A DNA stretch of 64,000 nucleotides from Nitrospirota bacterium. GTDB lineage: Bacteria; Nitrospinota_A; UBA7883; JACRGQ01. The position numbers are program-made. Shown piece after piece: positions 57,001 through 60,000 of this stretch. How positions within the stretch are numbered: the stretch's first letter is position 1; each line of letters begins with the position of its first letter. The DNA lies in NCBI GenBank assembly GCA_024275955.1, contig JAJRYD010000005.1, positions 7,480 to 71,479 of the forward strand, written 5' to 3'.

Positions 57001-60000
57001 AAGGGTCATGAGTCCTTAATTTTAGAGCGGGAAACTATAAATACCAAAAGCCCAAAAGCTATTACGATAACGGCGACAACGCCTGCTATAGAGCTACCGC
57101 CGGCCTTTGCGCTCTCTTTCGCGATACTCTCCTCAGAGACAGTCTCCGATAGCTCCTTTACGGTAGAACGAACGACTCTCGCTATTCTGTTCGCGTTTCG
57201 ATCGCTTTGCGTAAACCATACATCACCTTTAGAATCAATTTTTATATCCATCGGCTGCGCGTGCATAGTGGGAATATCAAAAATGCTCCACTCAAGCTCG
57301 TTAGGGTCAAAAAAGCCTACACGGTTCATCATGCTGTCAACGAACCATATCTTCCCGTCATCTGCCGGCATTATAGATTGAGAAACAGCGTTAAACCCCG
57401 GAATATCGGCAACGCTAAAAATTCCCGGATCTGGCATAAACAGCCCTATCTGTTTTGTCCGCAACTGGCAAAACCAGAGTTTTCCATCTTTGTCGAACCT
57501 CATTACACCCGGCTGAGCGTTGTGTACATTTATCGGAAACTTCTTTAGCTTCTTCGTTTCGGGGTTGTAGCGTCCTATATAGTTGCCTACGACATCCCCC
57601 AGCCATATATTGCCATCGGCATCGCTTGTTATTCCCATCGGGTTTGCGCCGACGCCAAGGCTCATTTCAAATATTCTCTCCTCCTTTGGGTCGAGGTAGC
57701 CGAACTTACTAGCATTTTGTTCTATAAACCAGATGCGGCCTTTTGGGTCTTCCGTAAGGTCGTACGGGATGGAATTGGCTGTTGGAACCATTATCTCGGT
57801 AAATTCTTCTTTTGATGGATCGAAGCGGACTATGCTGTTCCCAAGTTGCATAACAAACCATATCATCCCGTCTCTTGCCACGATAACGTTACCCGGGTTG
57901 CCGACGCTGTAGTTCACTACCGTATCTTCAGGTGTTGTACGGTTTTGGGGGTCGTACTTCCAGTCGAGGCCATCAGTCAGGCCGACGGTTGACGGCACCC
58001 TGTATTCCTTTAGTTCTCCTGTCGACGGGTCAAACAGAGCCAAAGAGTTGCCGGCCATCTGCGTAATCCATATTCTGTCGCTAGAGTCTATAGCAAGCCC
58101 AAAAGGTGAGCTGTACTTTGTCGGGAGCTTAAATTCTTCAATCGTAGGATTAACAGAAGCAACAAACCCCTTGATTTGGGAAATTTTTGGAACAACAACA
58201 CCAGACACTCTGCCGCCGTTTGTGGAAGCAAAAGAGGCGGAAGAAAACAGAACAAACAGGAGCAGGGCCGCGAATGATGCGGCTAGTCTAGCTATACTGC
58301 CAGCACTCAGCTTACCATGTGAAAGTAGGTTCATACATATGCCTCATCTGCCAGTTTGCGTCTTTGTATCCGCCGGCTTCTTCATTTTTGCTTTCGTAAA
58401 TCATATTGCCAGAGTTGTCAAGACCGCCGGATTTGCCAGCCCTATATTTGCCAACTCCAATCTGCCTCGCACGGTCGACCATGTAGTAGTTAAAAACATC
58501 CATCGGCGGTATAGCCATCCTGTGCCCCATAGCCGGATTATGGCACGAATCGCATCCTAAAATCTTGGCCTGATGCCCGCTCCTTACGACACCTACCATC
58601 AGCACAAAGAAGCAGACAAGCGCCGGGACGGCGTAGACAAAGCTTTTCTTAAAGCCGGACCGCATAGCCCTAGCCTTTTCCATAAGGCCTTTGAGGCCCG
58701 GGATACGGTCTAAAGGCAGTTTATGCATATACGGCAAAAGCACGAGGTATATCATTATGGCGATGGGAATAAGAGGCATTATGAAAAGATATTTCTTCAT
58801 CCGCCCTTTTAAATACCAAAACGGCATCCATAAAATCGTGAAAACCCACTCAGGGCCTGGCACATTGGCCCCATGATCCGGTAACGGAATCTCCATAGGG
58901 GCATCATCCGGTACAGGGAAAAGGTAGGCAAGCAACACTATAAGGGCTGTTGCTACCAACATAAGCAGAGCAAGCCGTAAAACATAGTGCGGCCACCATT
59001 TTATCTCTTTTTTATTTTCACTCATAGCGTCATACCCTGTCTGAAAGGCCAAGACGCCTCTCAAGTATTATATGGATCAACAACGCCCCAAACAATAAAG
59101 TGGGCAGAATGAAAACATGGGCTATATAGTTTCTTCCAAGAGTGAAGTATTTAAGCATCGGCCCTTTCAGATAGGAACCGAGCAGGGGAATGTTGTCTAC
59201 CCAGTCGGCCCAGATTATAAGCTCCCAGTAGCTACGCCAATCCCACGGAACGATTATGCCGGTAATAAGAAGAAGGAAAAAAAGAAAACCCATAAAAAGA
59301 CCTATCCACCAGTTAATCTCTCTTGGCGCGCGGTACGCTTTTTTAGCTATTATATGAAACATATGAATTACCAGAAAGAACACCCCAAAAGTAGAACTCC
59401 AGCGGTGTACATTTCGGAATATTGCCCCGAAGGTAGCCTCGTTGCACATAGATTTTATACTTTCATGTGCCAAATCCGGCACCGGAACATAATACGAAGC
59501 CATATATATGCCTGTAATTACCTGAATTACGATGCACCCTATTGTCAGGCCACCGAAGTATGTCCAAAAGCTCCAGTGTTCCGGCATAGTGAACGCTATA
59601 TGATCCCTGTAAAAGCCTTTCACTCCCAGCCGTACGTCAATCCAGTCTATTAAGCGTTCAAACATTGTTCCGGCTCCCTTCCTACTGTTCCAGCTCTTCG
59701 TCCGGCTCTGGAAGCCTTGCCTCTGCAGGGGCATCGAGGTAGGCCGCTTCATCTATCGTATCGGCCATAAAATCTATCTTCCACTCATTCGATTCTTTGT
59801 CGAGTATAAGGTTCATGTTGCTTTTTGTTGTAAAAAAATCTCCAAATATGGACGGTGTTTTTATATTGAGCTTTACCACAGCTACCATAAGGCCGTCTTT
59901 ATTCGGCTTGGTCGGCATTACGGTTTCCAAAACCTCAATTTTGGTATCTTTGGTAAAGTCTTGGGTCCATTTTCTGAAACTGTCTATATCTAGCATCATG

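Follow-up and report, generated by a model that had tools for sequence, protein, structure and literature searches.

The PEW motif is a hallmark of the quinol-oxidation (Qo) site, and the b6f complex, which has such a site on a split cytochrome b, contains a Rieske protein. Among the enzymes that reduce nitrous oxide (N2O), the L-NosZ or clade III family is reportedly described in He et al. 2025. Here we analyze a locus that combines a split cytochrome b with an L-NosZ-like protein. It lies in a 64,000-nucleotide stretch of DNA (hereafter the window; positions 7,480 to 71,479 of contig JAJRYD010000005.1) from the Nitrospirota bacterium assembly GCA_024275955.1, which GTDB places in Nitrospinota_A. 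Two open reading frames (ORFs), at positions 59030-59665 and 58312-59025 of the window, are tightly packed on the minus strand inside a run of nine genes and encode the two halves of the cytochrome. The core of the original prediction for these ORFs, namely a split cytochrome b with a heme c on its subunit IV half, beside a copper enzyme and with no Rieske gene nearby, is supported by our analysis, and the module proved to be broader than noted, since a conserved lipoprotein and two beta-propellers also belong to it. On balance, and inferring function from sequence, we favor the reading that the module is a dedicated Rieske-independent quinol dehydrogenase core that feeds L-NosZ.

The electron-supply system of clade II nos clusters is said, going by its title, to be treated in Hein et al. 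2017. Clade II clusters can carry cytochrome b, cytochrome c and Rieske genes, according to a further paper (PMC13122619). For clade III, papers that cite the L-NosZ description report metagenome-assembled genomes (MAGs) that contain nosZ but lack nosR and the other canonical nos accessory genes, and one citing paper places "cytochrome" genes near clade III nosZ but says nothing more specific. The literature that we found does not address the source of electrons for L-NosZ, the defining paper (He et al. 2025) being outside that reading, and PMC10849945 discusses only the gene for the NOV5WD8W-family protein from the cluster described here. In the Geobacter cluster extHIJKLMNOPQS, which encodes one of the two closest curated relatives of the b subunit, ExtO is a Rieske protein and ExtQ is described as a 16.8 kDa membrane protein, with nothing more (PMC5877670).

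L-NosZ, described in 2025, may have been overlooked as a sink for the greenhouse gas N2O, as the citing papers put it. The module is the obvious candidate for its electron supply and is kept in Nitrospinota, Nitrospirota, Desulfobacterota and a Hyphomicrobiales MAG. It would also determine how much energy the host organisms gain from N2O respiration. Moreover, a cytochrome b/subunit IV pair that retains PEW but has no Rieske neighbor tests the assumption that Qo-type oxidation needs a Rieske cluster.

The cytochrome b6-type subunit

Both ORFs have the boundaries and strand originally proposed for them. The NCBI database contains proteins 100% identical to each, one of 211 amino acids (consistent with a start at position 59665) and the other of 237 amino acids (consistent with a start at 59025). 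The first ORF had been described as a four-helix, di-heme cytochrome of the b6 type, and this description stands. Its product matches the Pfam family PF00033 (E = 5.4e-30), aligns in full with spinach cytochrome b6 (E = 1.3e-35), and has four membrane segments by hydropathy. The four heme-ligand histidines, His87 and His101 (spaced by 13 residues) and His183 and His198 (spaced by 14), are invariant in all 58 family members, and the PWD motif of helix C is kept in 57-58 of the 58 sequences.

At the position of the CxGG cysteine, the motif by which heme cn/ci is defined (PMC5600118), the window protein has Tyr36, aligned with Cys35 of b6, and only one of the 58 family members has a Cys in this column. 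Because the CxGG cysteine is replaced by Tyr36, the protein is predicted to be a two-heme and not a three-heme cytochrome b, that is, a two-heme cytochrome b6-type four-helix bundle. We also considered Cys44 (the "TIGC" position) as the heme ci cysteine and rejected it, since the CxGG definition places the site at Tyr36. The second-best curated match of the b subunit is ExtP, at 140.1 bits against an NCBIfam equivalog cut-off of 290.

The subunit IV-like protein and its heme c

The profile searches suggested for the original prediction gave a divided result: PF00033 was found as above, but PF00032 and PF13442 were not, and no Pfam family at all matches the second ORF at E ≤ 10. There is likewise no subunit IV family among its NCBIfam matches at E ≤ 1, where the only hit is a very weak one to ExtQ (9.7 bits, E = 0.94; cut-off 150). 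The protein has 147 homologs at E ≤ 1e-3, mostly from Nitrospinota, Nitrospirota and "Deltaproteobacteria" MAGs, and the non-identical ones reach E-values of about 1e-107, far beyond chance.

To identify the protein we relied on a profile of 26 family members, which was searched against 1.84 billion representative proteins and gave 471 matches at E ≤ 1e-3. The distant matches cover profile positions ~5-115; in cytochrome c fusions they fall at the N-terminus, and in long cytochromes b at residues ~200-330. Among 78 such distant matches, 68 have PF00032, 57-59 have cytochrome c domains and 33 have PF00033. When the profile was aligned by hhalign with four long cytochromes b that the b6 query had turned up independently, the probability was 88% (E = 2.9e-6), with helix E and the PEW loop in register. 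In one genome, the two halves are fused as a single ORF (P0097). Because of the profile matches, the hhalign result and this natural fusion, we agree with the original prediction that the PEW-containing ORF has subunit IV homology: the 237-residue protein is a subunit IV homolog with PEW and, by prediction, one covalent c-type heme on a periplasmic C-terminus. An hhalign comparison with a spinach PetD sequence gave 34% probability in the correct register and is a lead, not evidence; hmmsearch of the PDB with the 26-sequence profile returned no PetD or cytochrome b match.

The PEW motif and the terminal CDSCH monoheme domain noted earlier in this ORF were both located, and they are conserved in 109 homologs. 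P58 and W60 are present in 109/109 and E59 in 108/109, whereas the residue after PEW, Val in the window, varies across the family (Y in 39, L in 27, I in 19, F in 10 and V in 9). The heme-binding residues C158, C161 and H162 are found in all 109 sequences, and so is H229. Since His229 is invariant, and Met227 (98/109) and Met230 (90/109) are not, the pattern suggests His/His ligation of the heme, with His229 as the probable sixth ligand. Hydropathy gives three membrane segments (residues 18-36, 79-103 and 129-147). By the positive-inside rule, the Lys/Arg-rich N-terminus and F-G loop are predicted to face the cytoplasm and the C-terminal 85-90 residues the periplasm, and CDSCH begins ~10 residues past the last segment, on the predicted periplasmic side. 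PEW and CxxCH are 100 residues apart, within the range of 96-113 that is common among 63 fusions of subunit IV with cytochrome c.

The c domain itself was not recognized by PF13442, PF00034 or any NCBIfam model. Its best profile matches in the PDB are to cytochromes c-552 (c-551/552-type, class I), at sub-threshold E-values of 0.024 and 0.037, and in the profile search its tail, YKDANWQMRHMYEPTFTW, was matched by top-ranked close-family sequences only. Judged by these searches, the c domain is family-specific.

Association with L-NosZ

The copper protein of the cluster is not of the kind expected: comparison with the cytochrome genes of clade II nos clusters had been suggested, but the protein belongs with the clade III L-NosZ. 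It matches NF052460 with 599.7 bits (E = 3.4e-180), which is below the equivalog cut-off of 700, and we call it L-NosZ-like. Its CuA motif is CQHFCGPLHLEM, with the pattern C-x3-C-x3-H-x2-M. Its sequence is 72-84% identical to the proteins of syntenic Nitrospinota-type loci and 53-55% identical to those of Nitrospirota and Desulfobacterota loci.

A family-alignment scan of GTDB species representatives found 47 loci, all in MAGs, and 40 of them have enough upstream DNA to be evaluated. The gene order is L-nosZ, lipoprotein, cytochrome b, subunit IV-c and then two propellers in 35 of these 40 (locus L023 has no propellers). The lipoprotein gene sits between L-nosZ and cytochrome b in most syntenic loci and is absent at L003 and L037. 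A Hyphomicrobiales MAG has the same module arrangement beside L-nosZ. In Nitrospirota and Desulfobacterota, a gene for a mono-heme cytochrome c of ~155-173 residues (with PF13442 in L005), or for a protein of 450-490 residues with one CxxCH, is inserted between the cytochrome b and subunit IV-c genes; the loci with an insert are L005, L032-L036, L039, L041-L043, L045 and L048. No gene is inserted between the cytochrome b halves in Nitrospinota, the window included.

The module can also occur by itself, and this weighs against a role tied to L-NosZ: five of the 40 evaluable loci carry it with no L-nosZ nearby. In one of them, in a Zetaproteobacteria MAG (L052, 6443-8517), an FGE-sulfatase-domain protein and a 399-residue cytochrome b replace L-NosZ upstream of a module made up of the lipoprotein, cytochrome b, subunit IV-c and two propellers. 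Since the lipoprotein is present in this locus, it seems to be part of the cytochrome module. Such loci, in which cytochrome b, subunit IV-c and both propellers persist, would be expected if the module gave L-NosZ no catalytic electrons and instead served the propellers or another periplasmic partner, or kept CuZ reduced and active in the manner of clade I NosR. The strong hairpin that separates L-nosZ from the downstream genes is consistent with this, and the clade III MAGs reported to have no nosR leave room for a NosR-like role. We nevertheless regard it as unlikely, because 35 of the 40 loci are syntenic with L-nosZ, because no Cys, His or Met is conserved in the propellers, which hence have no obvious redox cofactor, and because a cytochrome c gene is found in the L-nosZ loci that lack the module, pointing to electron delivery.

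These module-less loci come from two gammaproteobacterial MAGs (L056 and L057), which have no cytochrome b module and only a di-heme cytochrome c after L-nosZ. They indicate that this enzyme clade can be supplied with electrons in another way. That Gammaproteobacteria swap the module for a cytochrome c fits a role of the module in electron supply rather than in maturation.

It would be very unlikely, in our estimate, for electrons to run in the reverse direction, from a periplasmic donor through heme c to quinone, for example in reverse electron flow. Cytochrome b complexes are reversible in principle and some Nitrospinota live on high-potential donors, but the only consistently linked redox enzyme is a terminal reductase, which electrons enter at a CuA site, and the cluster encodes nothing like a periplasmic dehydrogenase.

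Two further features of the compared loci may be recorded. Upstream of the module in L052 are genes for a GldG-like ABC auxiliary protein, a DUF4340 protein and a periplasmic-binding protein, which are found likewise in the Nitrospirota L-nosZ locus L005. CcmH and thioredoxin-like genes lie nearby in both L056 and L057, and SCO1 in L056.

Search for a Rieske protein

The earlier statement that the operon encodes no Rieske protein was borne out. When the whole window was scanned in all six frames with the regular expression CxH...CxxH, the sole match fell in a spurious antisense ORF, and there was no real Rieske ORF. We extended the scan to 54 related loci from four or five phyla, covering ~10 kb on each side where the contig allows. 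No ORF in these loci has the strict pattern CxHxGC...CxCH. A looser pattern gave 23 matches, mostly antisense or otherwise non-Rieske-like, and no Rieske family is present among the called genes of the nine loci with gene tables. In the syntenic Nitrospinota loci, the genes upstream encode a second spermidine-synthase-like protein, a sigma-54 response regulator and a sensor kinase.

The main rival to a Rieske-independent module is an ordinary Rieske/cytochrome b complex with its Rieske protein encoded elsewhere in the genome and with heme c downstream of that protein in the role of cytochrome c1 or QcrC. Several points count in its favor and against our reading. We know of no Qo-type site that works without the Rieske histidine as the first electron/proton acceptor. 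Some subunit IV-cytochrome c fusions, Bacillus QcrC for example, work with a Rieske protein, and the ~100-residue spacing from PEW to CxxCH, being the norm among such fusions, fits their general architecture. Both of the closest curated relatives of the b subunit, cytochrome b6 and Geobacter ExtP, belong to Rieske-containing complexes. The predicted structure of the c domain is poor, so no heme geometry can be taken from the model. Finally, Rieske genes are sometimes encoded apart from cytochrome b (reviewed in PMC5600118), and our scans cover the loci only. Even so, a Rieske protein supplied in trans seems improbable to us: none is encoded within ~10 kb in the 54 loci although the operon is tightly conserved and translationally coupled, and the usual Rieske slot, directly upstream of cytochrome b, is taken by the conserved lipoprotein.

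Other proteins of the cluster

The lipoprotein has no family match in Pfam or NCBIfam, and outside the lipobox none of its Cys, His or Met residues is conserved. Both beta-propellers lack conserved Cys, His and Met as well. Their genes follow the subunit IV-c gene, with stop and start codons that overlap, and they stay with the cytochrome pair also at loci that have no L-nosZ. We considered whether a hidden cofactor site in the lipoprotein or the propellers replaces the Rieske cluster, and rejected this because of the missing residues. The lipoprotein and the two cofactor-free propellers are probably structural or docking subunits.

The NOV5WD8W protein has been proposed to be a NosZ-adjacent, CusF-like copper chaperone (PMC10849945). 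Among 18 cluster-linked homologs, it has no Cys, His or Met that is ≥90% conserved, a pattern that sits uneasily with a Met/His copper site of the CusF type. Given that there are no conserved Cys, His or Met residues in the lipoprotein, the propellers or NOV5WD8W, three hemes are the only predicted redox centers of the module.

Organization of the locus

The nine minus-strand genes form one co-directional run, with spacers of at most 96 nucleotides or short overlaps (Table 1). The gene for the 442-residue propeller overlaps the subunit IV-c gene by 23 nucleotides, and hydropathy predicts membrane segments at residues 17-35 and 416-434 of its product. The gene for the 962-residue membrane protein, which overlaps the preceding gene by 4 nucleotides, is the closing gene of the cluster in Nitrospinota.

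Table 1. Features of the L-nosZ and cytochrome module cluster, in order along the minus strand.
Feature	Position in window	Strand	Basis and remarks
Sigma-54-type promoter-like element TGGCAT-N5-TTGCA	62630..62645	-	Near-consensus; ~30 nt 5' of the first cluster gene
NOV5WD8W-family protein	62112..62600	-	First cluster gene; NF052405, 199.1 bits (cut-off 170)
L-NosZ-like clade III lactonase-type nitrous-oxide reductase	60291..62093	-	NF052460; Pfam Lactonase, nos_propeller, Cupredoxin_1
Terminator-like hairpin	60234..60265	-	14 pairs, 10 of them G-C, then a T run
Lipoprotein, 174 aa, lipobox Cys21	59682..60206	-	Synteny, conservation; no family match
Cytochrome b6-type subunit, 211 aa	59030..59665	-	PF00033, spinach b6 alignment
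Subunit IV-like/heme c protein, 237 aa	58312..59025	-	Family profile, hhalign, fusion P0097
PEW codons, residues 58-60	58846..58854	-	Sequence, alignment
CDSCH heme c attachment motif, residues 158-162	58540..58554	-	Sequence, alignment
Vgb-lyase-type beta-propeller, 442 aa, N-terminal signal, C-terminal membrane anchor	57006..58334	-	PF24684, 6e-49
Second Vgb-lyase-type beta-propeller, 344 aa, signal peptide	55975..57009	-	PF24684, 6.1e-51
Membrane protein, 962 aa, spermidine-synthase-like domain and TPR repeats	53090..55978	-	PF01564, TPR, synteny
TPR protein	52556..52993	-	Last gene of the nine-gene run

The hairpin is strong and stands between L-nosZ and the lipoprotein and cytochrome genes; near it is a sigma-70-like site at 60220-60193. 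Together, these elements suggest that transcription is attenuated there or that the electron-transfer genes have a transcript of their own. At the related locus L001, a sigma-54-dependent response regulator and a dCache sensor kinase are encoded upstream.

A second spermidine-synthase-like/TPR membrane protein is encoded at 62908-63951 (-), so that it and the 962-residue protein bracket the cluster. Most Nitrospinota loci have this flanking pair; the Nitrospirota and Desulfobacterota versions of the cluster lack it. Just past the downstream end of the cluster, the opposite strand carries genes for a multiheme cytochrome c of 382 residues with five CxxCH motifs (51359-52507, +) and for a small protein weakly like cytochrome c' (48363-48797, +), with a gene for a PMT_2-like glycosyltransferase between them (49292-50722).

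Proposed electron path

We propose that quinol, probably menaquinol, would be oxidized at a periplasm-facing Qo-type pocket marked by PEW and PWD. At least one electron would pass to the fixed heme c, which would stand in for the relay through Rieske and cytochrome c1 or f. In Nitrospinota, as here, heme c would reduce the CuA site of L-NosZ directly, and in Nitrospirota and Desulfobacterota the electron would travel from heme c to CuA by way of the extra mono-heme cytochrome c. The second electron may go to the two b hemes as in a Q cycle, or these may simply buffer it. The original prediction had raised the possibility that electrons go directly from quinol to the copper enzyme, and such a transfer is plausible.

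A bolder version of this proposal is that the lipoprotein, cytochrome b, subunit IV-heme c and the two propellers form, together with L-NosZ, a new respiratory complex in which the fixed heme c, in place of the mobile Rieske head, is the primary acceptor at the Qo-type site. We see this as a long shot. If it were true, and if the b hemes took the second electron, it would be the first quinol oxidation of the Q-cycle type that needs no Rieske protein.

Comparison with known systems

The module appears to be an uncharacterized bc-type system with no linked Rieske gene and no heme cn, with a family-specific heme c domain and hard-wired to L-NosZ. It shares with the b6f complex (PetB, PetD and PetC) the split cytochrome b, in which a four-helix, two-heme PetB-like protein is paired with a three-helix subunit IV that contains PEW. 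Unlike b6f, it has no Rieske gene at the locus and no heme cn cysteine (Tyr36), its subunit IV carries a covalent heme c, and the fourth residue of PEWY is variable.

The original prediction likened the arrangement to that of Firmicutes, and to QcrC in particular. As far as architecture goes this is apt: in QcrABC of Bacillus and other Firmicutes, a b6-like QcrB is likewise followed by a fusion of subunit IV to a C-terminal cytochrome c, and a distance of ~100 residues from PEW to CxxCH is typical of such fusions. The likeness ends there, because models of QcrC, PetD and cytochrome c all fail to match the second ORF and the CxGG cysteine is missing. The module also differs from QcrABC in having no QcrA Rieske gene at the locus and no heme ci cysteine, and its c domain, unlike that of QcrC, is not recognizable as class I and probably has His, not Met, as distal ligand. 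With no heme cn cysteine in the b subunit and a c domain that is family-specific, we do not count the module as a member of the Bacillus QcrBC family; the resemblance is architectural only.

In the Geobacter ExtOPQ system, ExtP is the second-best match of the b subunit and ExtQ the sole match of the second ORF, but the module scores far below the cut-offs of both families (290 and 150 bits). The NCBIfam model of ExtQ has 134 positions, which is too short for a C-terminal domain like that of the module. We rejected ExtPQ as a precedent for a Rieske-less system, since ExtO is a Rieske protein.

Clade II nos clusters offer a further parallel. Their NosGH/NosC1C2 system and their Rieske/cytochrome b genes are likewise dedicated quinol-oxidizing membrane modules encoded beside an N2O reductase. 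The module described here differs in its partner, L-NosZ of clade III, and in standing at a locus without a Rieske gene.

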